Positions 4,953-57,206 of a stretch of DNA of 64,000 nt are shown here, in pieces; position 1 is the first letter of the stretch, and each line of letters opens with the position of its first letter. Both the position numbers and the translations under genes were made by a program. Under the pieces are notes generated by a model that was given only the letters and a program-made list of their open reading frames with translations, was not told the DNA's origin and searched no databases. The stretch covers positions 1 to 64,000 of IMG/VR virus record IMGVR_UViG_3300034105_004543; one strand, written 5' to 3'. The DNA comes from a virus.

Positions 4953-4960
4953 GATATATA
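4953..4960 (+). promoter_or_regulatory. Putative late promoter GATATATA (representative copy, upstream of the sheath gene)
   Basis: Exact copies just upstream of genes at 15822, 18006, 21722, 30392, 33167, 36828, 42460, 49460, 51324, 63780 and at 28766-28773 on the - strand. Confidence 0.8.
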
Positions 4961-8377: not shown

Positions 8378-8932
8378 ATGGCAGGACTATCACATTATCA
8401 AAATTCAATATCTTCAATAAACAAGTATGAACCTGTTTATTTGAACCAATTTGAGGTAACTATAATACCTCCAGCTGCTATAGCAGGAGGAAGTATATTG
8501 CTACAACACGTCAGTAAGGTTAATGGACTTTCATTGGACAAGAACCCTGGAACAGTTCAACAAAAATATAAATTCGCTAAAAGGAATTATGCTGGTTCAA
8601 AACCGGAGAATACCTATATGGATCTTAGTATTACATTCAGTGTCAACTTAAATGACGCTAATTCCATGTATGTGTTTAAAACTTTAAGACAATGGTCAGA
8701 TACAATCTATAATCCATTAACTGGAGCGATGGGTCTTAAAAATGATTATACGGGATCGATAGTTATTTCGGTGTTTAATAAAGCTGGTGATGTTTATAGA
8801 AGAATAACATGCAAGGATACGTTTCCTACTAAACCAATTTCTCCAATGAATCTAAACTATACAAGTACGGACCTATATAAAATAGACGACATGGTTTTTG
8901 CTGTTGATTATTGGGACGATCTATTCCTATAA
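8378..8932 (+). CDS. Tail tube protein (gp19-like), paralogue 1
   Basis: Follows sheath; 184 aa; LRQWSDTIYNPLTG..KNDY and FAVDYW tube motifs. Confidence 0.85.
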   Translation: MAGLSHYQNSISSINKYEPVYLNQFEVTIIPPAAIAGGSILLQHVSKVNGLSLDKNPGTVQQKYKFAKRNYAGSKPENTYMDLSITFSVNLNDANSMYVFKTLRQWSDTIYNPLTGAMGLKNDYTGSIVISVFNKAGDVYRRITCKDTFPTKPISPMNLNYTSTDLYKIDDMVFAVDYWDDLFL

Positions 8933-8946: not shown

Positions 8947-9522
8947 ATGGCAGGATTACCACATTTTACAAATTCGCTTGCAGGTATAAATAATTTTGAG
9001 CCTGTATTTCTTAACCAGTTTGAAGTACTGATAAGTCCACCTTCCGCTATAGTTGGTGCTAGTACAACTTTTAAGGGTGAAAGTATATTAACTCAACAAG
9101 TTAAATCTATAACTGGTTTAGCTGTTGATATAGCACCTGCTCAAACGGTGAATCAGAACTATAAATTTGCTACTAGAAGATATGCTGGTGGTGAACCACA
9201 AACCAGTGATATGAACCTTTCTATGGAATTTGAGGTGAACCTTAATAATTCGAATTCTATGGAACTTTATAAAATACTTAGACAATGGTCTGATTTAATT
9301 TATAATCCATTAACGGGAGCAATGGGTCTTAAGAACGACTATGTTGGTTCTATACTTATTTCAATATTTAATAAACAGGGTGACGTCTTCAGAAGAATAA
9401 GAATACCCTCATGCTTTATAAGTGAACCTATAAATGCTATGGATCTTGATTATGAGACTCCAGCTATTTATACAGTAAGGACCTCTTGGGTTTGTGATTA
9501 CTGGGAAGATCTATTTATGTAA
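8947..9522 (+). CDS. Tail tube protein (gp19-like), paralogue 2
   Basis: Collinear with the preceding ORF (MAGL, EPVxLNQFEV, IYNPLTGAMGLKNDY, DYWxDLF). Confidence 0.85.
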   Translation: MAGLPHFTNSLAGINNFEPVFLNQFEVLISPPSAIVGASTTFKGESILTQQVKSITGLAVDIAPAQTVNQNYKFATRRYAGGEPQTSDMNLSMEFEVNLNNSNSMELYKILRQWSDLIYNPLTGAMGLKNDYVGSILISIFNKQGDVFRRIRIPSCFISEPINAMDLDYETPAIYTVRTSWVCDYWEDLFM

Positions 9523-12618: not shown

Positions 12619-12626
12619 TACATTTG
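12619..12626 (+). promoter_or_regulatory. Bacteroidota-type housekeeping -7 promoter element TACATTTG
   Basis: Matches TAnnTTTG; same element at 25065, 32412 and 47414, each followed by TA and upstream of enzyme genes. Confidence 0.65.
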
Positions 12627-12646
12627 TAGGTATTAAAAAACAATCT

Positions 12647-13210
12647 ATGAATTTCAAGTTTATAATCCACAGTGATATCTCATTTATAACTGATGATTTT
12701 CTCAAAAACCCAACATGGAAGATAAAAAAAAATACATCCGATGGGTGTATATCCTATGAAGTATATTATTCCGATGATACGGATTCACCGCTTGACTCAA
12801 ATCCGAAGGATCATCAGAAGGATTCTATATACATGGAGATGTCTAAAGTCTGGTCAAAAAATTCAAAATGTAAAAGAATGCAGGTTGGATCTTTAATAGT
12901 CAAGGATAAATCTATTATATCTGATGGGTACAATGGATCACCCAGCGGATTTCCTAATATATGTGAGATTGATGACACTACACTTCCATATGTGCTTCAT
13001 GCCGAAGCCAATGCGATAACAAAATTAGCAAGAGGGACTCAAAGTTCCGACGGGTCAACATTATACGTTACTCTATCGCCTTGCTATGAATGCTCAAAGC
13101 TTATAATACAATCGGGTATTAAAAGAGTTGTATTCTCAGAAATTTATAGAAAACCAGAATCAATAGCTTTTCTTGCAGAGGCAGGAATTGAAATCTTAAG
13201 AAAAAAATAA
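12647..13210 (+). CDS. dCMP deaminase
   Basis: SKCKRMQVG, SDGYNG, HAEANAI, TLSPCYECSK zinc motifs. Confidence 0.95.
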   Translation: MNFKFIIHSDISFITDDFLKNPTWKIKKNTSDGCISYEVYYSDDTDSPLDSNPKDHQKDSIYMEMSKVWSKNSKCKRMQVGSLIVKDKSIISDGYNGSPSGFPNICEIDDTTLPYVLHAEANAITKLARGTQSSDGSTLYVTLSPCYECSKLIIQSGIKRVVFSEIYRKPESIAFLAEAGIEILRKK

Positions 13211-13214
13211 AAAT

Positions 13215-13871
13215 ATGCAAAGTAAGGAAAAAAACATTCAAAAATTGGCTGGTGAATTTATTAAATTGAGAGATGATAGATCTTTTAGAAATCTATTCGA
13301 GAGATTAAAGCCCGGAATATTGAATCATTGTTTCTTAATAGTTAAAGATCCTTCGTTAGCTGAAGATGCCTTTTTGAATACTATGTCCAAGATATGGCAA
13401 AAAATAGAGCAATATAACGACGAGAGAGGAAACTTTTCAACGTGGTGTTATAATATAGCAAGGAATGAGACCCTTCTATTAATGAAGGAGGAAAAAAAGT
13501 ATTATGCAAGGACAAGTTTGGAGATGGAATTCTTTTCATCCAATAATGAGGTAGGCGATATGGGGGGTACATATAACATGGAGGGGGATCAATCCAATTC
13601 ATTTTTTAATGAAACAAGTAAATTTGAAGAAATATACGAGTCAGTTATAAACGAAATAGAAGGACTACCAGACCTATATAAGAATATTATGATCGATAGA
13701 GAAATCAATAATATGAAATATAAGGACATAGCTGAAAAATATGGTCTTAAGAAAAGATCGGTAGCAACAAGAATAAGAAGAGCAAGAAACAAGATAACAA
13801 AAAATATTGGTGATAATGCATCGGAGGTTATTGCTGGTAGATCAAGAAATAAGGTAAAGAGGGAGGCATAG
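13215..13871 (+). CDS. ECF-type sigma-70 factor
   Basis: Region 2 LAEDAFLNT..IW..FSTWCYNIARN; region 4 HTH MKYKDIAEKYGL..SVATRIRRAR. Confidence 0.9.
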   Translation: MQSKEKNIQKLAGEFIKLRDDRSFRNLFERLKPGILNHCFLIVKDPSLAEDAFLNTMSKIWQKIEQYNDERGNFSTWCYNIARNETLLLMKEEKKYYARTSLEMEFFSSNNEVGDMGGTYNMEGDQSNSFFNETSKFEEIYESVINEIEGLPDLYKNIMIDREINNMKYKDIAEKYGLKKRSVATRIRRARNKITKNIGDNASEVIAGRSRNKVKREA

Positions 13872-13885
13872 ATAAATACCAATTG

Positions 13886-13912
13886 GAAACTTTGATGAGC
13901 TTTGCTGTATAA
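13886..13912 (+). promoter_or_regulatory. Putative ECF-type (middle) promoter GAAAC-N16-GTATAA
   Basis: Bipartite motif recurring at 15180, 20810, 31438, 47429, 52784 and 63766. Confidence 0.55.
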
Positions 13913-13927
13913 AATAATAAAAATGTT

Positions 13928-14368
13928 ATGTTTAAATTACCTAGAGTATTAAAAGAGATATCTCTATATCGTGAATATACTAAACAAATAAAATCTGAAG
14001 AACTTAATTCTCCCTTATGGAGTAGAAAAAATCTAAGAAGGGATTATCTTAATAGAATATACACTGTTATAAATTTACCTCCTGAGGTTCTGATGTCTAG
14101 AGATTTTCCTAAGGAATCTAGACCTTCATTTATTCTTAGTGAAATAAAACCCATTAATGACTATCTTAAATCGTTAAATTTAGAGGAACTACTTACCTTA
14201 TGGATAGATCCAGTAAAGGGAACTGACGAGGAATCGTATCTGGTTGTTTATCAGTTTGTATTCAGAGAAATCAGCTGGATTTGGATATTTAGATTTATTT
14301 TAGAGATAGCAATTATTCTAGCTGTGGCTATTAAGTGGAGCTGGTTATGTAATCTATTTGGATTTTAA
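13928..14368 (+). CDS. Hypothetical protein with C-terminal transmembrane helix
   Basis: 146-aa ORF with hydrophobic C-terminus. Confidence 0.6.
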   Translation: MFKLPRVLKEISLYREYTKQIKSEELNSPLWSRKNLRRDYLNRIYTVINLPPEVLMSRDFPKESRPSFILSEIKPINDYLKSLNLEELLTLWIDPVKGTDEESYLVVYQFVFREISWIWIFRFILEIAIILAVAIKWSWLCNLFGF

Positions 14369-15180
14369 TGGTTGAAGCTATAGAAAAAGTTAAGAACGAG
14401 ATAAATTCCAAATTAAAATTTTTTGAAGATAGCAATTTTAATTTCGATGAACCATCCCACGTTTATAGATACAAAGGTGTTAAATTTGATTCTGTTACAA
14501 CATATCTTAAAAATTTTAAAACTCCATTTGATAAGGAATATTGGTCGAAAAGAAAAGCGAAGGAGCAAGGTGTTGATCAATCAGTTATACTTAACAAATG
14601 GAAAGAGAAAGGTGACGTTGCTAATGATTTAGGTACAAGAGTTCATAAATATATAGAGGATTTTTGGAGTGGATTAAATCCAGAATTACCGGAAATTGGC
14701 ACCGAATATAGGACAAGAGTTGATAAATTTATGGATCTATATGCAAGAAAATTCCATTCCCTTGTTCCTTTAAAATCTGAGCTTAGAATATTTTCAAAGA
14801 AATGGAGATTGGCAGGAACTATAGATCAGCCTTTCTTATTTTGGGACTCCAAAAGAAATAAAGTTCTTTTTATCCTTGGCGATTGGAAAACTAATGGTGA
14901 ATTTAAGGACGACAATCATCCAAAGGGCAGATATAAAAAATTACTTAGACCGTTTAATTCACTTTATGAAAATCATCATAATGAATATTCTATACAGATA
15001 TCTCTATATAGATTAATATTGGAAGATGAATTAGGCATAGAATCAGAAAGCGGTTTTTTATGCCATATAGGTCCTGATTCCGAACCAAGGATATATCCAG
15101 CTAAGGATTTGAGAGAACCTTTAAGAGCATATCTTGATCAAAATAGATGTAATAATCTGGATATTTTTGATCTAGCATAG
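14368..15180 (+). CDS. PD-(D/E)XK RecB/Cas4-like exonuclease
   Basis: SVTT, GTRVHKYIE, AGTID, GDWKT, YSIQISLY motifs. Confidence 0.85.
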   Translation: MVEAIEKVKNEINSKLKFFEDSNFNFDEPSHVYRYKGVKFDSVTTYLKNFKTPFDKEYWSKRKAKEQGVDQSVILNKWKEKGDVANDLGTRVHKYIEDFWSGLNPELPEIGTEYRTRVDKFMDLYARKFHSLVPLKSELRIFSKKWRLAGTIDQPFLFWDSKRNKVLFILGDWKTNGEFKDDNHPKGRYKKLLRPFNSLYENHHNEYSIQISLYRLILEDELGIESESGFLCHIGPDSEPRIYPAKDLREPLRAYLDQNRCNNLDIFDLA

Positions 15181-15226
15181 AAACAAAATATAAAAAATTA
15201 CTAAAAATATAAAATAAAAAAAAATT

Positions 15227-15757
15227 ATGAGCGAAAATAATAAAAAAAAAGCGATAAAAATTGAAAATGTAAATGCTGGTCCAGGAGCATCGGATGCAGT
15301 TGATTTCAATGATAATGATTTTGTTAGTAATCTGGATCAGGATTTAATCAACGAATTAAATGAAAAACTGGAGGATAAAAAATCTGAGATTAGAACTAAG
15401 GTTTATGCAGTTTCTTGTACTAGAGAGATATTCTCTTTATACAGAGATTTTGTGATAGATAAAGCTGAATGGAATTCAACGGAAGCACTTGGTATTATCC
15501 AAATTAATAAGGAGATTCAAAAAATTGAGAAAGAAGGTATAAAAGACAATGTTATCTATTTAGGTGCTCTTCCTTTAGAGGCTAGCCACTATTTTATCTC
15601 TAAACATAAAGGTGTTGGATTAGCAAGTGCAACTGAATTTATTACATTATACAAAGCTTTCGATCAGGCTTTAAGTGATGCTAAAAAAGATGCCAGCGAG
15701 ATTAAAGATATTGAAGCACAGCTTAATGCAGCAATGCAAGGTATGACTTTAGGATAG
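15227..15757 (+). CDS. Hypothetical protein
   Basis: 176-aa ORF with A-rich start, followed by a terminator. Confidence 0.6.
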   Translation: MSENNKKKAIKIENVNAGPGASDAVDFNDNDFVSNLDQDLINELNEKLEDKKSEIRTKVYAVSCTREIFSLYRDFVIDKAEWNSTEALGIIQINKEIQKIEKEGIKDNVIYLGALPLEASHYFISKHKGVGLASATEFITLYKAFDQALSDAKKDASEIKDIEAQLNAAMQGMTLG

Positions 15758-15764
15758 TATAAAA

Positions 15765-15817
15765 AAACAAACACAAAAAAAGCTAGATTATCGTCTAGCT
15801 TTTTTTGTGTTTGTTTT
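15765..15817. terminator. Long inverted repeat / bidirectional intrinsic terminator
   Basis: AAAACAAACACAAAAAAAGCTAGA-loop-TCTAGCTTTTTTTGTGTTTGTTTT. Confidence 0.85.
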
Positions 15818-15855
15818 CTATGATATATATCATATAAACTTTAAAATTAATAAAG

Positions 15856-16131
15856 ATGAATAAATTTTTAAATGAACATGGGACTAAGATAATTATTCTT
15901 ATTTTGGTACTTATCTATTTTAAATCGTGCAGTAATGGATCTAACATTAAAGCTTTGAAAAAGGAAGTTGTGAAGATTGAATCCAAAATTGATAGTTTAC
16001 CAACTAGTAGAGATATCAGAATTGAAGGATTAAAAGTGGAAAAAAGAATGATCCAATCGACGGATAGAAAAATATTGGATGTTAATAGGCAAAGTGAAAT
16101 AGAGAAGGAGATAGAGGGACAAAAATTATAA
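15856..16131 (+). CDS. Small membrane-anchored coiled-coil protein (possible lipoprotein/spanin-like)
   Basis: N-terminal hydrophobic helix ending FKSC, then a coiled coil. Confidence 0.45.
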   Translation: MNKFLNEHGTKIIILILVLIYFKSCSNGSNIKALKKEVVKIESKIDSLPTSRDIRIEGLKVEKRMIQSTDRKILDVNRQSEIEKEIEGQKL

Positions 16132-16137
16132 ATTGAC

Positions 16138-16737
16138 ATGCATGATAAAAATAAATTAATTAGAGGATTTATAATAGGTACTTTTGTATCTCTTTATGTA
16201 ATAGTTAGTTGTATTTCAACAATACATGTTATTGATTTCTTTAGATTATCAAATCCTGAATGGCTCTCAATATCACTAGCTATAGCATTTGAAATTGGAG
16301 CAGCAGCATCCCTTGCATCCCTTATTGTTTTACATAAGATGAATAAGTTTATAGTTTGGAGCCTTTTCATAGTTTTAACTATGGTTCAGGCAATGGGTAA
16401 TACATTTTATGCATATTCCCACCTGAATGGCTTTGGTAAATGGATAGAATTATTTAATCTTGTTGATGAGGATCTTATCTATCAGAAAAGAATCCTATCT
16501 ATAATAAGTGGTGCCATATTACCCCTTGTTTCGCTTGGTTTTATAAAATCCCTTGTTGATTATATAAAACCCGAGGATAATACAAAATTGGAAATAGCAG
16601 ATAGCACGGAGCAGGAGATATTTCCGGATAAGGATGAACAGAATACCGAACATAAAAGTACACCTGATCAACCGACAAGTTTAAGAGATTTGGTTTATGG
16701 AGAAACACTGCAAATCGATCCTACTAGGTTACAATAA
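16138..16737 (+). CDS. Multi-pass membrane protein (about 4 TM helices)
   Basis: Four hydrophobic segments and an acidic C-terminal tail. Confidence 0.6.
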   Translation: MHDKNKLIRGFIIGTFVSLYVIVSCISTIHVIDFFRLSNPEWLSISLAIAFEIGAAASLASLIVLHKMNKFIVWSLFIVLTMVQAMGNTFYAYSHLNGFGKWIELFNLVDEDLIYQKRILSIISGAILPLVSLGFIKSLVDYIKPEDNTKLEIADSTEQEIFPDKDEQNTEHKSTPDQPTSLRDLVYGETLQIDPTRLQ

Positions 16738-16752
16738 AATAATAAATAATAA

Positions 16753-17469
16753 GTGCAAGATCTAGAAACACCAAGCATTAATAACTACGACGGAGGATCA
16801 TCCTCCCAGTTTCCAGGTGGAAATGAAATATATGGTGGGAGTTCAAATTTTCCAATAGGTCCTAATCAGTATCCTGAAAACGAGTCGGCTCAAAATCCTC
16901 TGGGTGGACCAACGGGGGGATTCAATACGGAATATAGAAATATAGCATTAAATAAAAACCAATTTAAAATTATTGATGCCACCTTTCAGAGGTTTAATGA
17001 ACCTGTTGGCGTAAATTTTATAAAAGAATCTTTTGATGCTGTTTACCAATCCCAGGTTTTGGATTTTCTGGATGTTGCTGATTTTTTCCATCCCCTCCAG
17101 GAATTTTCTAATTATCAGAAACAAACGATTATAATAAATCCAGCAACATCATTCAATCTGGATCCTGGATCTTTTACTGATACTAACGGTGAAATATCAA
17201 TGTTAGTTGCAAAAGCAGAATATTTACCAGATGCTAGTGATGATGATAAAGTTTTATTTTGGGATTATCTAGGATCACAGAGAAATATAATGGGTGGATT
17301 TATGGTTCTAACCGGTGCAATAAAGAAAGGATATAATTGGAAGGGATGGGACATAGATCCATTTAGTACATATAATCACGCAGATATACCTAACAGTGCC
17401 AACGGAGGATTTATATTTACTAATCCAACAAGTATGACGGTGAGATTGACAATAATAACAGCAAACTAA
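16753..17469 (+). CDS. Hypothetical (probably virion) protein, paralogue of the next ORF
   Basis: Shares KAxxP..W.Y.G....MG..MVL.GA...GW....NGG.IFTNP with 17471..17953; GTG start. Confidence 0.6.
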   Translation: MQDLETPSINNYDGGSSSQFPGGNEIYGGSSNFPIGPNQYPENESAQNPLGGPTGGFNTEYRNIALNKNQFKIIDATFQRFNEPVGVNFIKESFDAVYQSQVLDFLDVADFFHPLQEFSNYQKQTIIINPATSFNLDPGSFTDTNGEISMLVAKAEYLPDASDDDKVLFWDYLGSQRNIMGGFMVLTGAIKKGYNWKGWDIDPFSTYNHADIPNSANGGFIFTNPTSMTVRLTIITAN

Positions 17470-17470
17470 T

Positions 17471-17953
17471 ATGGCAACAAGACCAGTAACGTGTCCATAT
17501 GACACACCGGAAGGATTTAGATTTTATCGGGATAATCTAGTTTTAGATGATGGTATGGGAACTCCCAAAAAATATCTCCCAATGAATGACTTTCTTATAA
17601 ATGTGGATTCATTCTCAAAAAGTAGGGTTTCGTTGGATCCTGGGAGATCTTTCTTATTAAGTCAGAGCGACATTGGTGATAATTTAGGATATGTCTCGTT
17701 TATAGCAATAAAGGCAAAATTCCCCGATACTATAGTTGAATCTAAGAAATATTTAACGTGGGTATATAAGGGACAAACGATGAATATGGGGGAATTAATG
17801 GTGCTTTCTGGTGCTAAACAATATTCAACAGACTCGACATATGAGGGATGGAATCTATCTAAACCTAATGATTATATAAATAATGGCGGAATGATATTTA
17901 CTAATCCACATGCTGATTTCCAGATAAAGTTAGAGATATTAATAGGTAGGTAA
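17471..17953 (+). CDS. Hypothetical (probably virion) protein, paralogue of the previous ORF
   Basis: Same shared motifs as the previous ORF. Confidence 0.6.
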   Translation: MATRPVTCPYDTPEGFRFYRDNLVLDDGMGTPKKYLPMNDFLINVDSFSKSRVSLDPGRSFLLSQSDIGDNLGYVSFIAIKAKFPDTIVESKKYLTWVYKGQTMNMGELMVLSGAKQYSTDSTYEGWNLSKPNDYINNGGMIFTNPHADFQIKLEILIGR

Positions 17954-18035
17954 TAAAATATTTCATTTATGAAATATATAGTAAAAAGTTTCTTGTCCTT
18001 GTATGGATATATAATCAATAAAAAAAAAGTAAACC

Positions 18036-20597
18036 ATGGATTTTATAAATCAAGTTAAAAAAGTAAAAGAAATCACAAAATCTCCGGAGGTAAAAGCTTT
18101 ATGCGAAAGTTTCCTTAGTGGTGATTCAGTTTCTAAGGAGAAACTAGTAGTTTTGATTAGCGAACATAATACATCCATGGATTTAGATAATTCTGGAAAT
18201 AATATACACAATCATATGGATTTAATAAAAAGGGAAGAGTCGGAGATCTCTAAAAAAGCTGCTAATTCGCTTATGGAATCTTGGACCGGTTTAGGAAAAT
18301 CTACATCAGGTAGTAATTCTGGATCATATTCAGATAAACCTAAACAAAATAAAAATGAAGAGGACTCGCTATACGAAAATATCAGCAATTTGGAATCCTC
18401 TGATCTTGTTGCAAAATCATTTATTGATACACAAAGTGTAAAGAATCTTGGTATTAGAAATGCTATAGAAAAGATAAAGGAATCTTCCATCTACACATAT
18501 CCTAAAGCTAAAATTGTTTGTGAACAATATCAATATCTTTTGGAAAATAAAGGAGTTCCTGAATTTTCACTTATCAACAATTTCATAAATGAACTTGCTT
18601 CGTTTTCTTGGGACTCATCAATAGCACCCATTGAGGCGGAATTAAGAGAAAAAGCAAAAACATTTTCCAGAGAAATTGAAGTTGCTAAAGTTTTAGAATC
18701 TATAAAAAATAGCGGAAGCTCTTCTTTCTATTCTGAGCTTTCTGAAACACTTAATGAGTGGTTAGTTTCTGAGAATAAATCTAATGGTCTGTTGGTAAGA
18801 AATATCAGTAAATTTAACTTTAATCCAGTAATCAAAAATCTTATAAACTTTTTGAATATACACGAAAGTACTGATAGCAGAAAATTAGAGGTGCCTGTTA
18901 ATATACAAGGAGAATCTAGCGTTTCTAAAGTTTACTCACCGGTTCTTTTCGAGAACGGAAGAACGTTCTTCTTTATAGGTGGATGTATATTTGAAGCTGA
19001 TTCATCTTCCTTAAGAAAATTAGGAAAATCCGAATATTCTTCTCTACCTGAAAATTATCTAAGACTTTCATTAACGACCATGAAGTCTCATGTAAAAATA
19101 AACGAGTCAGGAATCTCTGTTAAACTTGGTAATAAAATAGTTACCATGATTGAAGAAAATGACAAGGTTTCGGTTTATCTTGGAAAAGACAAACTTAGAT
19201 TTGGTGACACCGTAGGTTTGGCTAAAATAATTGGTCTTGAATCCTCATCATATTTTGGTGTTAATGAATCGGAATCAGTAGGTGACATTATGACCCTTTA
19301 TACAAGCTATTCTTCCGTGGTTGAATTAGATTTTGCAAAATCCATAACATCTAATGTTTATGAGGGTCTTGGAATTAATCTTTTCAAGTGGAATGGTCAA
19401 ATATATCTTCAGAAAATAAATGAGGCTATGAGAGAAAATTCACTTTATGAAGTTAATGGATCTCAAGCTGTTGCTATGGTTAAGAACTTTATGAGATATG
19501 ATATCTCGGAGGGTTTAACAGAATTTCTTGATGGTGAATCTAAGGTTAAATCTGTAATGATAAATGACAGAAGTAAAGTTCTTGAAAATATCTCTAAAGT
19601 GGAAGGTGAGATTACAAAAGTTGAAACGCTTATGGAATCTAATTCATTATACAAAAACTCAAAAGAAATCAAGATTGCACATTCTATGCTTGAAAGAGAA
19701 TTACAATCTCTTAAAAGCAAATGGAATCAAATAAATATAGAGATTCAAAAAGTTGATGCTGATATAAAATTACATGCGGATGTCGATTTATTCGAGGATC
19801 AGAAATTTAACATAGGTTCTTTTGTTAAGGTTAAGGAATCTGGAGATACTGGTAAAGTAATTTCAATCGATAGCTCATCAGGAAGATATACAATCCTTCT
19901 GGATACAGGTAAAACTGAGGATCACCAGATAAATGATCTAGCTGATTTGGACGAGGCTTTAAATAAAGCTGCTGATGATAATGCTGAATCTATGGACTCT
20001 GATGACAATAATGACGATAATGGATCAGTTAAAGAATCTAATAACCTTAATAAATCCAAACTACCTGAAAGTGAGCAAAAAAAAATATTAAAGAAATTTG
20101 CTGGTATGCACGGATTCTCTAAAGCTCCTGGTGCGGATAACGGTCAAATAGAAATGGATGGTGATTCCTTACATGGGTATAATAGAACAATGAACGAGGC
20201 TAAAGCGGATCTTAAGAACAGAACATCTAAAACTAAAGACCCAGTAAATGACAAAAAAGCACAGATGTCTGATATTAAAAATAAATCATTGTCTGTTGCA
20301 AGTGATAAGAAGGAAAATTCTAAATTAACTAAAGGTACATCAAATACTAATTTTGCTGAAGCTCCTGGCGATGATAATATAAACAAAGGTAAAAACGTAA
20401 ATCCAAAAAATAATCTGGGTGCTGCTCCTGGTAATCACAATAAAGTAAACGGTAAAGAATTAGGTAAAGATTTAGTTAGAAAAGCTCCTGAGGGTAAAAA
20501 CAAATCTTCTGAATTTAATGCTAATGATGTGAAAGACGAGGAAGTTTATAACGCTGGTTATAATCTTAAAGAATCTGAAGAAGTAAAAAAAAACTAA
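18036..20597 (+). CDS. Large late protein, probable prohead core/internal protein
   Basis: GATATATA upstream; coiled coil, KOW/SH3-like segment, many (I/V/L)-x-E-S motifs, low-complexity tail with APG repeats. Confidence 0.55.
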   Translation: MDFINQVKKVKEITKSPEVKALCESFLSGDSVSKEKLVVLISEHNTSMDLDNSGNNIHNHMDLIKREESEISKKAANSLMESWTGLGKSTSGSNSGSYSDKPKQNKNEEDSLYENISNLESSDLVAKSFIDTQSVKNLGIRNAIEKIKESSIYTYPKAKIVCEQYQYLLENKGVPEFSLINNFINELASFSWDSSIAPIEAELREKAKTFSREIEVAKVLESIKNSGSSSFYSELSETLNEWLVSENKSNGLLVRNISKFNFNPVIKNLINFLNIHESTDSRKLEVPVNIQGESSVSKVYSPVLFENGRTFFFIGGCIFEADSSSLRKLGKSEYSSLPENYLRLSLTTMKSHVKINESGISVKLGNKIVTMIEENDKVSVYLGKDKLRFGDTVGLAKIIGLESSSYFGVNESESVGDIMTLYTSYSSVVELDFAKSITSNVYEGLGINLFKWNGQIYLQKINEAMRENSLYEVNGSQAVAMVKNFMRYDISEGLTEFLDGESKVKSVMINDRSKVLENISKVEGEITKVETLMESNSLYKNSKEIKIAHSMLERELQSLKSKWNQINIEIQKVDADIKLHADVDLFEDQKFNIGSFVKVKESGDTGKVISIDSSSGRYTILLDTGKTEDHQINDLADLDEALNKAADDNAESMDSDDNNDDNGSVKESNNLNKSKLPESEQKKILKKFAGMHGFSKAPGADNGQIEMDGDSLHGYNRTMNEAKADLKNRTSKTKDPVNDKKAQMSDIKNKSLSVASDKKENSKLTKGTSNTNFAEAPGDDNINKGKNVNPKNNLGAAPGNHNKVNGKELGKDLVRKAPEGKNKSSEFNANDVKDEEVYNAGYNLKESEEVKKN

Positions 20598-20761
20598 GTC
20601 GTAACTTCTATTTCGCTCCTAAGGGTGAAAATCAGAATAAACCTGGAAAACCTTTTGTCCAATCTATGAAAGGTAAATTCTCTAAAGCACCTACAGGAAA
20701 ACCTGAGGATGCGGATGATTCTGAGGATAATAACGATGATTCAGACGAGGATAAACAATAA
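20594..20761 (+). other. Unannotated -1 frame extension (55 codons) of 18036..20597
   Basis: A9C run immediately before TAA; the -1 frame reads LSRNFYFAPKGENQNKPGKPFVQSMKGKFSKAPTGKPEDADDSEDNNDDSDEDKQ*. Confidence 0.75.
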
Positions 20762-20767
20762 TTTAAG

Positions 20768-20803
20768 AAGAATGTAGTATTTTTTAACTACATTCTTTTT
20801 TTT
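20768..20803 (+). terminator. Intrinsic terminator
   Basis: AAGAATGTAG..CTACATTCTT stem followed by a T-tract. Confidence 0.75.
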
Positions 20804-20866
20804 ATGTGTGAAATCTTTTAGTATTTCTGACTAAAATACTAAATATCCAAATATAATTAAATATTA

Positions 20867-21226
20867 ATGGCAAAAGTTTATGTAAAGAATAGCGAGCTGA
20901 TGGCAGCGGTTATAGAATCGAAAAATGCTGGAAAGCTAACACCCGCAACAATAGATATGTTTAATCTGATGATTGAGGGTATATCTAAAAAGATGTCATA
21001 TAAGGATCCTGAGGATAGAGAGGATTGTATGGCTTTTGCTATGGAAGATCTATGCAAATATTGGAATAGATTCAATCCTGAAAAATCAAACAATCCTTTT
21101 GCATATTTTACACAAATAGCAAAGCATGGATTTGCTAAAGGATGGAAAAAATTGCACCCTCCTAAAAATCCAGTAACTATACCATTCAGTTATATAACAG
21201 GTGAGGATAATTCATATAATATCTAA
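20867..21226 (+). CDS. Late-transcription sigma factor (T4 gp55-like), minimal 119 aa
   Basis: YVKNSEL..FNPEKSNNPFAYFTQI signature. Confidence 0.85.
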   Translation: MAKVYVKNSELMAAVIESKNAGKLTPATIDMFNLMIEGISKKMSYKDPEDREDCMAFAMEDLCKYWNRFNPEKSNNPFAYFTQIAKHGFAKGWKKLHPPKNPVTIPFSYITGEDNSYNI

Positions 21227-21229
21227 ACC

Positions 21230-21715: not shown

Positions 21716-21749
21716 AATCTCGATATATAAATATCAAAAAATAAAATAA

Positions 21750-23378
21750 ATGGCAGGTTTCGTAAATAATAATAAACCAACAGAGTCACCCGTTGTACAA
21801 AGGATAAGAGAATCAGTTAAAAAACTGAGTACTTTTGGAATGAAGTATGATGATATGGTGATAAGAAATTCACAGGCTGTTGGTGTGACTGAAGCGGCTT
21901 TTCTTAATAAAAATAAAGCCAACGTAGAGGACGAAAGCATGCTATGGTCCCTTGCAAAGCAGGATATTACCACTCGACAATTTATAGGATATTTTGACAA
22001 GGATTATAAGGGAAAGAGGGATTTTTTAAGAATGTTTTCTTTAAATCCTGAGATTGAATATGTACTTGATACTATTTGTGACGAGGCTATAACTTATGAT
22101 CCAGCTAATTTCTTTGCATATCCTGATTTTATAGATCTTACTGATGCAAACGAGAAGGTAAAAGATGAACTTTATGACACATATAAAAATCTCTATGATA
22201 TATGGGGATTCTCTGATGATATAACTGCATGGCAATATTTTAGACAGTTCATTATCGATGGATTTTTGTCATTTGAGATTATTTATGATGATACCGGTAA
22301 AAAAATAGTTGGGTTTAAGGAGCTTGATCCTGTAACATTAATACCCAGCGTGGAGAAACAATTGGATGGAAGTTTTCTTAGTACATGGACTCAATACCCT
22401 CAGGATCCAAAGAAAAAACGTACCCTTTATGATCCTCAGATAATTTATATCTCATATGCTAAGGGAAATTCAATATCAAGAGTTAGTTACATAGAGAGAT
22501 TAATAAGACCATATAATATATTAAGAATTATAGAATATACTAGAGTTATTTGGTCCGTTATGAATGCATCATTTAAAATGAAAATGACAGTTCCGATTGG
22601 CACAAAGTCACAGCAGAAGGGTATGCAGACACTTGGTGAACTTATGAGTATTTATAAGGAAGATATACAGCTTAATGACGAGAGCGGTGAGCTTACTATT
22701 GATGGTAGTCCAAAGATTCAGTTTTATAAGAATTACCTTATGCCTTCAGGAGTTAATGGTACACCAACAATAGAACCAATAAATACAGAGGGACCTAATC
22801 TTAATGATCCCGCTCCTCTAACATATTTCTTCGATAAATTCATATTAGAATCCAAAGTACCTCCTTCAAGGTTTCATAATCCTGATGGTGGTAGTACATC
22901 ACCATATTCGAATGGTGCAGAGGGATTAGACAAGGAGGAAATAAGATTCTATAAATTTATATCCAGACTTAGATCAGTTTTTCAAGAAATATTAATCAAG
23001 CCGTTATGGATTCAAATGATTAATAAATACCCATATCTGGAGAAAGACTTTTTGTTTAAAAGTCAATTAGGACTTAATTATTGGTCCGATAATCCATTTA
23101 AGGAGAACCAAGAAATAGCAAAAATGTCGGGAAGAAAAGAAACTGTTACCGGTCTTGGTGGACTCCTAAATGATGATGGAAAACCATTTTTTTCAAACGC
23201 TTTCCTTATAGAGGAGTATTTAGGTATGTCTAAACAGGATATAATAGCAAATAAAGAAGCTAAAGAAAGAAAAATAAAAGAAAAAGCAGAAGCTGCTAAA
23301 AAAGAAGGAGCTGGTGCAACTGGAGCGGCCGGTGAAAAAAAAGAAGGCGGAGAAGAACCACCACAAGTAACACTATAG
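21750..23378 (+). CDS. Portal protein (gp20-like), paralogue A
   Basis: PEIE..ICDEAI, FRQFIIDG, ELDP, SYIERL, KVPPSRF, EEIRFYKFISRLRSVF. Confidence 0.9.
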   Translation: MAGFVNNNKPTESPVVQRIRESVKKLSTFGMKYDDMVIRNSQAVGVTEAAFLNKNKANVEDESMLWSLAKQDITTRQFIGYFDKDYKGKRDFLRMFSLNPEIEYVLDTICDEAITYDPANFFAYPDFIDLTDANEKVKDELYDTYKNLYDIWGFSDDITAWQYFRQFIIDGFLSFEIIYDDTGKKIVGFKELDPVTLIPSVEKQLDGSFLSTWTQYPQDPKKKRTLYDPQIIYISYAKGNSISRVSYIERLIRPYNILRIIEYTRVIWSVMNASFKMKMTVPIGTKSQQKGMQTLGELMSIYKEDIQLNDESGELTIDGSPKIQFYKNYLMPSGVNGTPTIEPINTEGPNLNDPAPLTYFFDKFILESKVPPSRFHNPDGGSTSPYSNGAEGLDKEEIRFYKFISRLRSVFQEILIKPLWIQMINKYPYLEKDFLFKSQLGLNYWSDNPFKENQEIAKMSGRKETVTGLGGLLNDDGKPFFSNAFLIEEYLGMSKQDIIANKEAKERKIKEKAEAAKKEGAGATGAAGEKKEGGEEPPQVTL

Positions 23379-23382
23379 TAAG

Positions 23383-24999
23383 ATGGCAGGATTTTTAGAC
23401 TTTATAAAACCAAACCAATCAGCATTAGGTAATATACTGAAGAATCTGGGTAGTATATCCAAATTTGGAATGCAGTATGATGATATGATTGTTAGAAATT
23501 CCCAGGCTATTGGTAGAACTGAGGGATCTTTTTTTAACCAGGAGGGAACAGGATATACAAAGGATAGCGCATTCCAATGGACTGCATCCTATCATGATAC
23601 GAAGGTAAGAAAATATATAGCCTACTTTGACAAATCCTATCTGGAAAAGAGAAATTATTTGAGGAAATTCTCAATAAATGGTGAGATTGAATTTATACTT
23701 GATATTATAACAGATGAAGCTATAGTTTATGATGATAGAAATTATTTTGCACAGCCATCTTTTTCCAATATAGATCTAAAGGATAAGGTCAAAGAAAAAA
23801 TAAGCTCACACTTCAATAGGCTCTATAATATATTTCAATTTCAGAATACTGTTCTTGGGTGGCAGTATTTTAGACAATTTATAATAGATGGATTTCTAGC
23901 TTTTGAAATTATTTATGATAATAAAGGTAAGGAAATAATAGGATTCAAGGAATTGGATGCAGTATCGCTTCAGCCAGTTGTTGAGAAGGTTGGTGAGAAT
24001 GAATTTAAACAGTTTTGGTTACAATATCCTGCAAATCCCCAGATGTTTAGAAAACTTACTGATGAACAGGTTATCTACATTTCTTATGCTAAGGGTAACA
24101 CGATATCAAGAACAAGCTATATTGAGAGACTCGTTAGATCCTACAACATACTAAGAATTATGGAGAATTCTAGAGTTATATGGAATGTAATGAATGCAAG
24201 TTACCGAATGAAATTCATTATACCTATTGGAACGCAGTCACCTCAAAAAGCAATGCAAACTCTGGGTCAGCTTATGTCCAGTTATAAGGAAGACATAAGT
24301 ATTAATGATTCTTCCGGTGAATTAACGGTTAATGGTAGACCTAAGGTTCAATTTTATAAAAATTATCTATTTCCCGAGCAGAATGGTGTTTCTCCTCAGA
24401 TATCATCGCTTAATCCAGCAGGTCCGGATTTCAACGTTATGGATAATGTTCTTTATTTCTTTAATAAATTAAAAATGGATTCTAAAATACCATATGCTAG
24501 ATTTGCTGCAAAGAATGGAACTCCAGCAAATTATCAGATAGCAATTGATCAATTAGAAAGGGATGAGATAAGATTCGAAAAATTCTTAAGAAGACTTAGA
24601 TCTATATTCCAAGAAATATTGGTAAAACCCCTTTATATCCAGATGTGTTTGGATTATCCAGAGTTAGCCAAAGATAGAAACTTCAAAGCAAATATTGGAC
24701 TTAATTTTAATAGAGACCTTGAATTTGAAGAACAGGTTGAAATGACAAATCTTAAGAAGAAAGGTGAATTTATAACATCATTGGCTGACCTTAAGATTAA
24801 GGCTGGCGAGGAGGATGTTCCATATTTTGATAATGACTTTCTTATTCAAAGATTTCTTGGTATGTCACCAGATCAGCTCAAACTGAATGAGATATACAAA
24901 AAGAATGAGGAGAAATCCGCTCCCGCTCCTGCGGCCGGGCAACCTCCCGCTTCCGCGGAGGGAGCTGAGGCGGAAGAACCACCACAAGTAACTTTATAA
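23383..24999 (+). CDS. Portal protein (gp20-like), paralogue B
   Basis: EIE..ITDEAI, FRQFIIDG, KIPYARF, RDEIRFEKFLRRLRSIF. Confidence 0.9.
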   Translation: MAGFLDFIKPNQSALGNILKNLGSISKFGMQYDDMIVRNSQAIGRTEGSFFNQEGTGYTKDSAFQWTASYHDTKVRKYIAYFDKSYLEKRNYLRKFSINGEIEFILDIITDEAIVYDDRNYFAQPSFSNIDLKDKVKEKISSHFNRLYNIFQFQNTVLGWQYFRQFIIDGFLAFEIIYDNKGKEIIGFKELDAVSLQPVVEKVGENEFKQFWLQYPANPQMFRKLTDEQVIYISYAKGNTISRTSYIERLVRSYNILRIMENSRVIWNVMNASYRMKFIIPIGTQSPQKAMQTLGQLMSSYKEDISINDSSGELTVNGRPKVQFYKNYLFPEQNGVSPQISSLNPAGPDFNVMDNVLYFFNKLKMDSKIPYARFAAKNGTPANYQIAIDQLERDEIRFEKFLRRLRSIFQEILVKPLYIQMCLDYPELAKDRNFKANIGLNFNRDLEFEEQVEMTNLKKKGEFITSLADLKIKAGEEDVPYFDNDFLIQRFLGMSPDQLKLNEIYKKNEEKSAPAPAAGQPPASAEGAEAEEPPQVTL

Positions 25000-25030: not shown

Positions 25031-25095
25031 GTGTTTATTGTTTTTTTAATTCGCACACTTTTATTACTTTTGTATGGAAATTAAAAAAATTAAGA

Positions 25096-26442: not shown

Positions 26443-27387
26443 ATGATACAAGAATTATTAACAGAAAAGCTCCGTCCCAAGAAACTGGAGCATATGATAT
26501 TGCCTTCAAGGATTTCTAAAGTTTTTGAAAACGGACTGGGTCAAAACATTTTACTTAGTGGCTCACCAGGATGTGGTAAAACTACTCTAGCAAAAATATT
26601 GGCAACACCATTTCCCCATTTATTTATAAATGTTTCCGATGAAAGTTCAGTTGAGACTATTAGAACCAAAATAACTGACTTCTGTTCGACCATATCAGTT
26701 ATGGATGGTAAGTCATCAAAAAAAGTGGTTGTGCTCGATGAGTTTGATGGAGCTTCTGATCAATTTTATAAAGCTCTCAGAGGAACAGTCGAAAAATATG
26801 CTTCCAATACGAGATTCATAGCAACATGCAATTATATTAATAAGGTACCTGATGCTATTCAAAGTAGATTTGAAGTTATTGATTTTAATCCGATAAGTAC
26901 CGATGAGGACGAAAGCCTTAAAGCCGAATGGTCTAATCGTGTAAATCTCATACTCGGAAAAATAGGAGTAACAATAGAGGATGAGGCTTTAATTGAATTT
27001 CAGAAGAGTTATTATCCTGATTTCAGAGCAGCATTGAATAAGATACAAGCTTGGATGATAGAGGGTGTTAAAAATATAGATTCGGCAAGGGTTAAAGAAT
27101 TTGGGTGGTCCTACGAGCATTTATATAACCTTCTGGTTACATCAAAGGATCCGGTTAAGAATTATCAGACTATAGTTGGCGAATATCAGGGTAAAACGGA
27201 CGATGTTATGTCTGCTTTAGGTGAGGAATTCATAAATTGGATAATCAATAATAAACCTGAACTTTCCAAGATTATACCTGCTGTGATTGTTCTTGTTGCG
27301 GATCACCAGGCACAGAGAACACAGGTGATAGATCCAATGGTTTCGCTGTTATCCTTATTTTTCCAAATAGAAAAACTCATCGAGTAA
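26443..27387 (+). CDS. Clamp loader large subunit (gp44/RFC-like)
   Basis: EKLRP, GSPGCGKTT, VVLDEFD, FIATCNY, IQSRF; ATG at 26443 preferred to TTG at 26434. Confidence 0.93.
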   Translation: MIQELLTEKLRPKKLEHMILPSRISKVFENGLGQNILLSGSPGCGKTTLAKILATPFPHLFINVSDESSVETIRTKITDFCSTISVMDGKSSKKVVVLDEFDGASDQFYKALRGTVEKYASNTRFIATCNYINKVPDAIQSRFEVIDFNPISTDEDESLKAEWSNRVNLILGKIGVTIEDEALIEFQKSYYPDFRAALNKIQAWMIEGVKNIDSARVKEFGWSYEHLYNLLVTSKDPVKNYQTIVGEYQGKTDDVMSALGEEFINWIINNKPELSKIIPAVIVLVADHQAQRTQVIDPMVSLLSLFFQIEKLIE

Positions 27388-27908
27388 TGGATATCAAGAG
27401 AATAATATTTGTTGGTAAGGCTGCGTCAGGGAAGGACCACGCAAGACAGCAGATGGAAAATTATGGATTTAGATATTGTGTATCCCACACAACAAGACCT
27501 CCGAGGGAGGGTGAGATTAGCGGTGTTGATTATCATTTTATAAGTTTAGATGCAGCCATTCATCATTTTATGCTAAAGAATCTTTTCTGTGAATTTGTTG
27601 AGTTTAATGGTTGGGTTTATGGTACCTCCATAGAGGAATTTGAAAAATCTGATTTATTTATAATGACACCTAGTGGTATAAGTAAACTGAAACCTGAGGA
27701 TCGGAAAGAATCATTTATAGTTTATGTTGATATTCGTGAGGATATCAGAAGAGAGAGGCTACTGAAGCGCAATGATGTGGATAATGTTGATAGAAGATTA
27801 AGTGCAGACGAAAAGGATTTTGAAAACTTTACTGATTTCGACCATAGAATAGCCGATCCTAATTTTGTTATCGATGGAACATTAAAGTGGATAAAATTAT
27901 TGGACTAA
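27387..27908 (+). CDS. gmk: Guanylate kinase
   Basis: GKAASGKD, VSHTTRPPREGEISGVDYHF, WVYGT. Confidence 0.9.
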   Translation: MDIKRIIFVGKAASGKDHARQQMENYGFRYCVSHTTRPPREGEISGVDYHFISLDAAIHHFMLKNLFCEFVEFNGWVYGTSIEEFEKSDLFIMTPSGISKLKPEDRKESFIVYVDIREDIRRERLLKRNDVDNVDRRLSADEKDFENFTDFDHRIADPNFVIDGTLKWIKLLD

Positions 27909-28747
27909 TTATAATATTCCCATTTATATCCACCTATTCTTTTGACTGTACCTTTACAGCATCTGCATATATTGGATGCTGTAAATCCTAATTCGCTGCT
28001 TATGCTTTGCATTGAATCCCATATTTTTATGGTATTACCTTCCTGATCTTTTTGTATAATCTTTTTAGAACTTGGATGTTTCCCACCCTTTATACCAAAC
28101 ATTGGATGCTCTTTGCCAATTTTAGCAGATTTCCTCATTTTTTCTTTTGTTTCTTCCGAGTGCTTTGGCATTATATTGGGCTTTTTTAAATGCCCTTGTA
28201 GTTTATCTGATTTATTTTTATATTCCCATATGAACCCGCCTGATGTTTTTCTCTTATTGTTTAATACCGCTGATATGTTTTGTTTAATTATTCCGGTTTT
28301 TTCAGATGCTTCTTTTATTGAATCGAATTCTGCTAATATATTTTTATTTATGTCAAATTGTATAATTGTTTTTGAAAGGATTTTTCTCCATTCTGGTGTT
28401 ATACAAGTAGTACCCTCTCCTCCATTAGTAAGATTACATAGCGGTCCCAATCCTAAGTCAAATCTTCCGATTAATTTTATGTATTTTATTTCATTGACGA
28501 ATGCATTAGCTTCTGTTAAATTTTCTTCTAATTTAATTGCTATTGGTAAACATCCATCGTTTATTAACATTTTCCTAATTTTTCTTTTTTTATATGTGTT
28601 ATTTTTTGACCCATTTATTCCGGTATAAATTCTATTACCACTTCCCTTCCCTACATAGAAGGGTTCATGATCGAATTCTATCTCCCCATATTTATATTTT
28701 CCTGGTTTTCTAGAGTCAAGATAAATGTATACATAATAATTTTCCAT
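27905..28747 (-). mobile_element. Free-standing homing endonuclease, GIY-YIG-like with NUMOD1/NUMOD3 DNA-binding motifs
   Basis: YVYIY..FYVGKG..R, E..YIKLIG, NLTNGGEG, HSEETKEKMR, two FDSIxEA/WDSM..GG(F/Y)xW repeats; antisense to its neighbours. Confidence 0.85.
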
Positions 28748-28812
28748 TAGCGAAATATTTTATAATATATATCGTATAATAATGAAAGACATAATTCTTA
28801 AATAATTTAAAA

Positions 28813-32387: not shown

Positions 32388-32435
32388 TTTTTTATCCCCG
32401 CAATATTTGATTATATTTGTAAGAAAATTATAATT

Positions 32436-47367: not shown

Positions 47368-47420
47368 TTTTACACAAAAAAAGGAGGATCTTAAAAATCC
47401 TCCTTTTTTTGTGTAAATTT
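47368..47420. terminator. Long inverted repeat / terminator
   Basis: TTTACACAAAAAAAGGAGGAT-loop-ATCCTCCTTTTTTTGTGTAAA. Confidence 0.85.
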
Positions 47421-47461
47421 GTAGGGCCGAAATCAAATTAATTTTTGCATCTATAATATTT

Positions 47462-51265: not shown

Positions 51266-51349
51266 CTTTAACTTTTAGAAGTTTGATCTGTTTATATATT
51301 TACACCATAAATTTTTTAAAATTGATATATACTTTAAAAATTTATATCA

Positions 51350-52875: not shown

Positions 52876-53532
52876 ATGGTATTTAGTATTAAAAATCTTT
52901 TTTCGTCAAAAAATAAAAAACAGAAAAGAATGAATTTAGCTGAAATTAAAACTGTGGATGAAATAAGAGCCATATATGGTAATATGGAATTTCAATGGAT
53001 TAAAGGTGATAATATGGGATCGATTGAATCTTATAAGAATGTTACCTCAATCGGTGAAGATTATTTTATTGAATTTACCAGTGGAAAAAGGATGAACATT
53101 AATCTGTTAGATGAGTTTTTAATGTATTATCCAGCTCCGCCTAAGCAAGATTTAGGTCTAAGAGCCGAATTTACTGAGGTTATGAGTAAGCCATCCAGTG
53201 TAACATCAATAGTATACAGTGATGCTTATCCTATAAACCAATCTGAAGAATCACCGATATATAAGTTACTTAGAAAGCAGAAAAAAAATTCAGTAGAGGT
53301 TTCAATAAAGCTCAAATTGAATTTACCATCAAAGGAACTTTATAGTGTTTTGTCTAGCTCTTTCGATGATGCAGAGAAGGATATAATAGATTTTGTTCTT
53401 TCCGGTGTTGATATAGAAGATATAAAAGCATCACTTGCTGATTCGATAAGACAATCATATTATGTTTCCGAAAAAAAAGAAACAACAAAATCGGGAAAAA
53501 ATCAGTTGAATAAAAAAGAAGACGATGAATAA
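52876..53532 (+). CDS. Hypothetical protein
   Basis: 218-aa ORF behind an ECF-like promoter. Confidence 0.6.
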   Translation: MVFSIKNLFSSKNKKQKRMNLAEIKTVDEIRAIYGNMEFQWIKGDNMGSIESYKNVTSIGEDYFIEFTSGKRMNINLLDEFLMYYPAPPKQDLGLRAEFTEVMSKPSSVTSIVYSDAYPINQSEESPIYKLLRKQKKNSVEVSIKLKLNLPSKELYSVLSSSFDDAEKDIIDFVLSGVDIEDIKASLADSIRQSYYVSEKKETTKSGKNQLNKKEDDE

Positions 53533-54112: not shown

Positions 54113-54124
54113 CATTTAATTTTT

Positions 54125-54415
54125 ATGAGCAACAGAAAAGAAAGAAGACATATTTTAAGATCTATGGGACTTTTGAATGTATCTAAAAATGATCCATTTA
54201 ATAATAAGCTTAAACTCGAGGAGGGTAAGAATAAACATAGAATACATTTACAGAGAATTAAAAACGAACAAATAAAGAAGGAAAATAGAGGAGATTCGAG
54301 TGATGATTTCTTTATATATAGACAGCAGGAATCCGAATATTCTTCATTTCGATCCATGTTGATCGAAAGAGATTGGAATAACCTGGAATCAAATGATGAT
54401 AATGCAGGAAATTAA
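54125..54415 (+). CDS. Small basic hypothetical protein
   Basis: MSNRKERR start; operonic spacing. Confidence 0.5.
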   Translation: MSNRKERRHILRSMGLLNVSKNDPFNNKLKLEEGKNKHRIHLQRIKNEQIKKENRGDSSDDFFIYRQQESEYSSFRSMLIERDWNNLESNDDNAGN

Positions 54416-54728: not shown

Positions 54729-54744
54729 AAAAGATTAGTGATAT

Positions 54745-56595: not shown

Positions 56596-56610
56596 AAATA
56601 AAATATTTAT

Positions 56611-57204: not shown

Positions 57205-57206
57205 TA

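Follow-up and report, generated by a model that had tools for sequence, protein, structure and literature searches.

Promoter classes and sigma factor genes of a T4-related megaphage are consistent with a sigma relay from early to late transcription

Genes for two phage sigma factors, one of the extracytoplasmic function (ECF) type and one similar to gp55 of phage T4, are located between 12.6 and 21.7 kb of a stretch of viral DNA of 64,000 nucleotides (nt) (IMG/VR record IMGVR_UViG_3300034105_004543, positions 1 to 64,000; called the window in the following). They raise the question how this phage, for which no RNA polymerase (RNAP) of its own was found in the DNA examined, directs the transcription of its genes. 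The original prediction, made from the sequence alone, had proposed that three promoter classes are served in turn by the host sigma factor, the phage ECF sigma and the gp55-like sigma. All three motifs turned out to be enriched in non-coding DNA and conserved in relatives, and a relay that reprograms the host core RNAP from host sigmaA via the ECF sigma to the gp55-like sigma is regarded, with moderate confidence, as the probable explanation.

The window comprises the first 64 kb of one contig of 102,336 bp (GC content about 33%), on which 79 open reading frames were called, nearly all on the plus strand; 2,972 nt (2.9%) are non-coding. Genes were annotated by PHROG and Pfam searches in batches, which left about half of them without a match, and the window was devoid of tRNA genes. 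Relatives with an ECF sigma of 65-91% identity were found in IMG/VR, with contigs of up to 434,509 bp. Three of them were checked (434, 430 and 373 kb), and all have direct terminal repeats and were rated 100% complete. Because these relatives are complete at 373-434 kb, and the contig was estimated to be 37% complete (CheckV), the contig is a fragment of a megaphage genome of about 370-430 kb. The megaphage belongs to the T4 superfamily and is a relative of the Lak phages. In GenBank, the phage homologues closest to the two sigma factors of the window are encoded by Lak megaphages of Prevotella and by related huge phages; a 10-kb megablast search against GenBank phages gave no match. The complete relatives read well in the standard genetic code, in which the Lak phages differ. 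The host is most likely a member of the Bacteroidota, and a lineage of large phages from aquatic habitats, related to Lak and with hosts predicted to be Bacteroidota, was described in 2025 (PMC12619734).

First, the three motifs were counted in the non-coding DNA of the contig and in 2,000 dinucleotide-preserving shuffles of these 2,972 nt, a check that the original prediction had named itself. The class i pattern TAnnTTTGTA was present 4 times (0.24 expected), the class ii pattern 8 times (0.16 expected) and the class iii box GATATATA 13 times (0.43 expected), and in no case did any shuffle reach the observed number. The patterns had been fitted by eye, after seeing the data, and therefore they were also tested on two complete relatives that were fetched whole, G001 (L004, 434 kb) and G003 (L017, 373 kb; ECF sigma 69% identical). 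In their oriented upstream non-coding regions the enrichment was again seen, with observed versus expected numbers in G001 and G003 of 63/15.5 and 45/13.8 for TAnnTTTG, 13/0.8 and 17/0.87 for class ii, and 57/1.6 and 53/2.5 for GATATATA. The E. coli-type combination TTGACA/TATAAT was not enriched (47 found, 67.6 expected). The four class i and seven class ii sites that had been predicted were all found, exactly at their positions (Table 1).

The bipartite class ii pattern is G(A/G)AA(C/T)-N16-18-(C/G)TA(A/T/C)AA. When spacers of 6-30 nt were scanned in the three genomes, 10, 24 and 4 matches had spacers of 16, 17 and 18 nt, respectively, and every other spacer length had at most 3. In the two unseen genomes the numbers were 8, 19 and 3, and again other lengths did not exceed 3. 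The boxes are strand-specific, with few antisense matches, and they lie 5-63 nt upstream of start codons. A comparison of the contig with G003 revealed that the boxes were kept and the spacers differed before the genes at 13928, 15227, 20867, 31482, 52876, 63831 and 77820. Before the gene at 47462 the boxes are kept more loosely; the G003 counterpart retains GAAAT and TATAA, and the strict pattern fails there because A replaces C/G. Downstream of the ECF sigma gene, relatives keep GAAAC-N17/18-TATAA(A/T), again with variable spacers. Two further intergenic matches were found, of which the one at 77772, outside the window, is conserved. The other, at 28752, was rejected as probably due to chance; it is not conserved, and it adjoins an HNH endonuclease gene that is missing from the respective junction of the relatives.

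These results make it very improbable that class ii is not a promoter at all, but a chance pattern or the site of another regulator, and that the gp55-like gene is reached by read-through or from an unrecognised element. Such doubts could be raised by the degeneracy of the pattern and its fitting by eye, by the non-conserved match at 28752, by the overlap of the match at 52784 with a hairpin, and by an unbiased 4+4 dyad search in G001, which did not recover class ii (class i was dominant, and after its removal tRNA T-loops and late-box combinations came up). Against them stand 13 and 17 matches versus about 0.8 expected in two genomes not seen before, the sharp optimum at 16-17 nt together with strand specificity and closeness to start codons, boxes that are conserved while their spacers diverge, and a block to read-through in the form of the conserved terminator immediately before the gp55 promoter.

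The wiring of the sigma genes can be read from the map of the region from 12.6 to 21.7 kb. A class i promoter (12619) is followed by two class ii promoters (13886, 15180), a terminator (15767-15814), two class iii boxes (15822, 18006), a second terminator (20765-20800), the class ii promoter of the gp55-like gene (20810) and a class iii box (21722). As predicted, the element at 12619 heads the operon of the dCMP deaminase and ECF sigma genes; TAnnTTTG is kept before the orthologous deaminase gene in every clade of the relatives, while its flanks drift. The site at 20810 was likewise confirmed directly upstream of the gp55-like gene. In seven diverged relatives the gp55 orthologues are preceded by a terminator hairpin and then by TGAAAT..TT and TA..A, both of which are invariant, whereas the spacer between them is not conserved. 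The arrangement in the family is terminator, then TGAAAT-N16/17-(C/G)TA. In the relay scheme the conserved terminator makes sense because the upstream operon is late; if insulation and a separate earlier promoter were lacking, the gene of the late sigma would depend on its own product. In all relatives examined, the ECF sigma gene is conserved as a set with two class ii promoters, one following it and one preceding gp55.

A late gene of 853 aa has a further peculiarity. At its end nine A residues (A9) precede the stop codon, and the -1 frame (20585-20761) is open for 55 more codons (LSRNFYFAPKG...DEDKQ). Six relatives belonging to several clades keep both the A9 run and the out-of-frame extension, and for this reason programmed slippage is favoured as the putative origin of the extension, rather than an error of sequencing.

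Next, the question arises which sigma factor reads class ii. The phage ECF sigma would be a fairly good candidate. It has regions 2 and 4 only (residues 27-87 and 143-194), and its best solved relative is SigW of Bacillus subtilis (3.7e-8, full-length alignment, low sequence identity). ECF promoters have AAC at -35 in common and spacers of 14-17 bp, and SigW recognises TGAAAC, often followed by a T-tract, together with CGTA (PMC5758882). The class ii -35 box is mostly GAAAC and thus carries this AAC, the spacing is similar to that of SigW promoters, the gp55 promoter has TGAAAT..TT and the promoter at 13886 carries GAAACTTT. The -10 box (C/G)TA(A/T/C)AA shares GTA/CTA with the CGT-type ECF -10 element, without the CG dinucleotide, and its last position is not a conserved T. 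The AAC-type -35 with a spacer of 16-17 nt, the resemblance to the SigW promoter and the Bacteroidota-type region 2 features of a third phage sigma (see below) are the reasons why the ECF sigma is preferred as the reader of class ii. Since that third sigma is present in complete relatives, the assignment can only be inferred.

Alternatively, the reader of class ii could be an alternative (ECF) sigma of the host, or host sigmaA assisted by a phage activator in the style of T4 MotA/AsiA, and the phage ECF sigma would then serve another purpose, e.g., redirecting host genes. Many ECF sigmas are present in Bacteroidota, which counts for this possibility, as do the lack of an autoregulatory class ii promoter at the phage ECF sigma gene and the fact that the assignment of sigma to motif is based on resemblance. 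It is nevertheless considered improbable, because the ECF sigma gene and both class ii promoters, after it and before gp55, are co-conserved in all relatives examined, and the TTTG required by host sigmaA is missing from class ii. In addition, MotA and AsiA had no PHROG match among about 70 proteins scanned in the window genes, with about 63% of the genome being off the contig.

The main rival of the ECF sigma is the third phage sigma. Three genes with a sigma region 2 are present in the complete relatives and two on the contig. The additional one, located off the contig and preceded by the class i promoter tttttttataccg-N-TATCTTTG, encodes a protein of 300 aa that aligns to RpoS/SigA across regions 1.2-4.2 (3e-31). 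The signature of this protein in region 2.3-2.4, GFKFIS[FY]A..VW[HW]IR..IL, matches almost only primary sigmas of Bacteroidota (Bacteroides fragilis, Segatella copri, Flavobacteriales, Cytophagales and Chitinophagales; 30-38% identity over residues 1-285), and the alignment has FKFIS-AVW-IR..IL in common to both. The Leu that Bacteroidota sigmaA has at the position of sigma70 T440 is also kept. At -10-reading positions His replaces sigma70 W434 and Lys replaces Q437, and region 4.2 is strongly diverged. As judged from the alignment, the protein resembles a short Bacteroidota primary sigma of the sigmaA type. Presumably made early in the complete relatives, it adds one more player to the relay and a possible rival reader of class ii.

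This 300-aa protein would then read class ii, and the targets of the ECF sigma would be different, small or unrecognised. Early production, a full set of regions 1.2-4.2, the altered -10-reading residues and the diverged region 4.2 would all fit, and class ii resembles group-1 promoters in having a TA at the equivalent of -12/-11 within TAnAA(T/A) and a spacer of 17 nt. Moreover, a separate fourth motif for this sigma was not found in the upstream regions left unexplained, which yielded tRNA words and class i variants. Overall this possibility is judged unlikely. The region 2.3-2.4 signature is that of Bacteroidota sigmaA and the Leu at the T440 position fits TAnnTTTG better, which points to TAnnTTTG-type promoters as targets of the protein rather than to class ii. 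The -35 of class ii has the ECF hallmark AAC, no T is conserved at the end of its -10 box, and the best solved relative of the ECF sigma is SigW with its TGAAAC/CGTA promoters. The third sigma would probably support or take over class i-type transcription in the complete relatives.

Class i was analyzed further with regard to the host. Promoters of Bacteroidetes have the -7 element TAnnTTTG, of which TAHHTTTG is a refined version, and only a weak -33 element (PMC6847099). The class i elements TAcaTTTG, TActTTTG and TAtaTTTG have no G at the n positions. A TTTG at -33 was not found at class i promoters; instead, the -7 element is preceded, at a distance of about 9 nt, by a T-run and (T/C)CGAA. 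The early consensus of the family is ATTTTTTTAT-tCGAA-N9-TATATTTGCA...gTAATTAA, and in a de novo ranking of 8-mers TATATTTGC/ATATTTGC were at the top beside GATATATA in both G001 and G003. Genome-wide, 4 of the 13 copies of TAnnTTTGTA are intergenic, exactly the four sites of Table 1. The class i motif of the original prediction has to be modified: TAnnTTTG is enriched in the relatives, but the GTA tail is a feature local to this region, because the family consensus is TATATTTGCA, and the site at 47414 is conserved in neither G001 nor G003. In many early promoters of G001, gTAATTAA occurs about 4 nt downstream of TATATTTGCA, near the expected start of the transcript.

The last class, class iii, had been proposed to precede structural operons, and this was verified. 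GATATATA heads genes for sheath, tube, portal, prohead protease, capsid, baseplate and fibre proteins, and also those of two homing endonucleases. Of the plus-strand copies, 15 out of 18 are intergenic, and two minus-strand copies are each located 18 nt before the minus-strand gene they face. The median distance to the ATG is 19-20 nt. A conserved -35 element is missing (upstream information content 0.06-0.15 bit per position). All three genomes have GATATATA as the late box, which differs from the T4 consensus TATAAATA. The late promoter of T4 is an 8-bp element without a -35 (PMC2988020), and this likeness and the homology to T4 gp55 are the reasons why the gp55-like protein is taken as the putative reader of class iii.

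Several features of genes with late boxes were noted in addition. One late box precedes two full-length tandem portal paralogues (21750-23378 and 23383-24999; phrog_213, 1.7e-54 and 3.9e-67), and the tail tube is also encoded by two tandem paralogues (8378-8932 and 8947-9522). The homing/HNH endonuclease genes with late-type boxes are located at 27905-28747 (minus strand) and 40666-42417. The former looks like a recent insertion, because G001 and G003 lack a counterpart of it at the orthologous junction.

Table 1. Promoter elements, terminators and sigma-related genes; positions are those of the window unless stated otherwise.
Feature	Position	Strand	Remarks
Class i -7 element TACATTTG (host sigmaA-type)	12619..12626	+	20 nt before dCMP deaminase start; T-run and CTCG upstream
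Class i element TACTTTTG	25065..25072	+	After terminator, before DNA ligase, clamp loader, guanylate kinase; kept in G001 and G003
Class i element TATATTTG	32412..32419	+	Before 3'-5' exonuclease; kept in G001, variant TAAATTTA in G003
Doubtful class i match TAAATTTG	47414..47421	+	Directly 3' of terminator; TAATTTTA in G001, absent in G003
Class ii GAAAC-N16-GTATAA	13886..13912	+	Before 146-aa membrane protein and PD-(D/E)XK exonuclease
Class ii GAAAC-N16-CTAAAA	15180..15206	+	Before 176-aa gene; boxes identical in G001 and G003, spacers differ
Class ii (T)GAAAT-N16-CTAAAA	20810..20836	+	Before gp55-like gene
Class ii GAAAC-N17-GTACAA	31438..31465	+	Before UvdE-like endonuclease; GGAAC-N17-GTACAA in G003, spacer differs
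Class ii GAAAT-N17-CTATAA	47429..47456	+	Before thymidylate-kinase-like and Asn-synthase-like genes; identical in G001
Class ii match GAAAC-N18-CTACAA	52784..52812	+	63 nt before 218-aa gene; overlaps hairpin; G003 orthologue GAAAC-N17-CTAAAA
Class ii match GGAAC-N17-GTATAA	63766..63793	+	GATATATA late box 63780-63787 within spacer; both elements kept in G001 and G003
Class iii box	4953..4960	+	Before tail sheath gene
Class iii box GATATATA	21722..21729	+	20 nt before first portal gene
Further exact class iii boxes	15822, 18006, 30392, 33167, 36828, 42460, 49460, 51324, 63780	+	
Further exact class iii box	28766-28773	-	
One-mismatch class iii boxes	8352, 9577, 10908, 17973, 40635	+	
One-mismatch class iii box	51293-51300	-	
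dCMP deaminase	12647..13210	+	PF00383 2e-25; phrog_174 4e-53
Phage ECF-type (group 4) sigma, 218 aa	13215..13871	+	Sigma70_r2 3.8e-11, Sigma70_r4_2 9e-10
Hairpin terminator closing middle operon	15767..15814	+	Late box next at 15822
Terminator insulating gp55-like gene from upstream late operon	20765..20800	+	Hairpin and T-run kept in all relatives
gp55-like late sigma, 119 aa, region 2 only	20867..21226	+	phrog_234 4.8e-15; Sigma70_r2 5e-5; T4 gp55 (7d7c) 9.6e-4
TnsA-fold protein	21230-21715		Matches phrog_218, annotated head closure
Third phage sigma, 300 aa	L033:973-1875; G001 about 204.4-205.3 kb	-	Off contig

Based on these results, the relay would have three steps. In the first, host sigmaA holoenzyme would start at TAnnTTTG promoters; host sigmaA is the presumed reader, since class i has the -7 element of Bacteroidetes, TAnnTTTG (PMC6847099). 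This would lead to the expression of nucleotide-metabolism and replication genes (Table 1; clamp loader gene at 26443-27387) and of the dCMP deaminase-ECF sigma operon. In the second, the ECF sigma would direct the core RNAP to G(A/G)AA(C/T)-N16-17-(C/G)TA(A/T/C)AA. About 8 of these promoters are on the contig and 13-17 in the intergenic regions upstream of genes in each complete relative, before DNA repair and recombination genes and the gp55-like gene. Besides the genes named in Table 1, they head head-closure-type genes together with gp55 and two blocks running into tail and baseplate genes. In the third, the 119-aa gp55-like sigma would read the 8-bp box GATATATA before the virion and homing-endonuclease genes. 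The element at 63766-63793, in which a late box lies within a class ii spacer, may serve both middle and late transcription.

The proposed three-class relay is thus supported in part. Its wiring is present and is conserved across the relatives with an ECF sigma of 65-91% identity; corrections concern the extra sigma, the class i site at 47414 and a class ii promoter that heads a baseplate block. Together with the failure of the dyad search, several observations weigh against it. At least one block headed by class ii (52876-63747) contains baseplate genes, and therefore the middle class is not cleanly non-structural. The -10 box has (C/G)TA and not the CGT of many ECF promoters, and TA at -12/-11 with a 17-nt spacer could equally fit a group-1-like sigma. 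The third sigma, with its substitutions at -10-reading positions and its diverged region 4.2, could be the reader of class ii. Upstream of gp55 homologues in Lak-B5 and LR756500 no class ii promoter was visible. The operon of the ECF sigma has a class i promoter only, without autoregulation, and an anti-sigma was not recognised. A conserved 146-aa tail-anchored membrane protein is encoded directly 3' of the ECF sigma gene (13928-14368), where an anti-sigma would be expected. As an anti-sigma, however, it is unsupported; Pfam and PHROG gave no match, and its alpha/beta model (pLDDT 76) had no match in the PDB at E<=0.001. Order and timing of the three classes, finally, are deduced solely from gene functions and wiring.

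A more far-reaching interpretation, a programme of four sigmas, is put forward tentatively and has the lesser chance of being correct. A phage of the T4 superfamily would have replaced the sigma appropriation by MotA/AsiA with sigma substitution at every stage. The phage's own diverged Bacteroidota primary sigma would read the T-run/CGAA plus TATATTTGCA promoters, so that early transcription could outlast the displacement of host sigmaA. The ECF sigma would then open a short middle window with the gp55-like sigma as its key product, and late transcription would follow.

The relay, with the ECF sigma at its second step, is a variant of known phage sigma cascades, and its logic matches that of T4 (three classes, gp55 late) and of Bacillus phage SPO1 (pure relay). 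T4 uses sigma70 for early, MotA/AsiA for middle and gp55/gp33/gp45 for late transcription (PMC2988020). As in T4, the promoters fall into three classes, the late sigma, homologous to gp55, would read one 8-bp AT-rich box without a -35, its gene is under the intermediate class, and T4-type virion genes are present on the contig (sheath, tube, portal, gp4-like head completion). In contrast to T4, the middle class has a bipartite ECF-type promoter and the phage encodes an ECF sigma, with MotA and AsiA not seen among the proteins scanned, the late box is GATATATA and not TATAAATA, the gp55-like protein has 119 aa instead of 185, and the early promoters are of the Bacteroidota TAnnTTTG type. SPO1 proceeds from host sigmaA via gp28 to gp33/gp34 (PMC13401047), and also there each class drives the next sigma gene. 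Its sigmas are unrelated, host phylum and phage lineage differ, and the last sigma of the megaphage is gp55-like.

Small phage sigmas of the sigma70 family that direct host core RNAP to phage promoters are also known from phiEco32 (gp36) and phage 7-11 (gp47), and the bipartite promoters of 7-11, GTAAtg-N16-aCTA, have a similar spacer and a CTA -10 box (PMC8948821). These phages, in contrast, are podoviruses of enterobacteria without a gp55 step, and their sigma serves late (7-11) or middle and late (phiEco32) genes. SigW differs by its CGTA -10 from the (C/G)TA(A/T/C)AA found here, and neither the anti-sigma partner nor the autoregulation was found. The 'group 2' (T4-like) jumbo phages (PMC7824862) and the Lak megaphages and 'moraphage' lineage of Bacteroidota (PMC6784885, PMC12619734) share the large size, the relationship to T4, the lack of an own RNAP and several sigmas, both minimal and RpoD-like, and Bacteroidota are the predicted hosts; unlike in the megaphage family, the gp55 upstream region of Lak is without a visible class ii promoter. 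In the passages searched, these three papers list sigma genes and contain neither promoter classes nor their wiring, and in the full texts searched no description of promoter classes or of such a wiring was found for Lak-related or Bacteroidota T4-like phages.

Taken together, transcription control in uncultivated megaphages, and in Bacteroidota phages generally, is almost unknown, and here a complete regulatory circuit is legible from the sequence, i.e., three classes defined by consensus, with sigma genes placed one class ahead of the class that each sigma would read, conserved across a family of 370-434 kb. The relay suggests how T4-like phages without MotA/AsiA obtain a middle phase. It also offers orthogonal promoter-sigma pairs for Bacteroidota, and genes of unknown function in these genomes would become sortable into early, middle and late sets.

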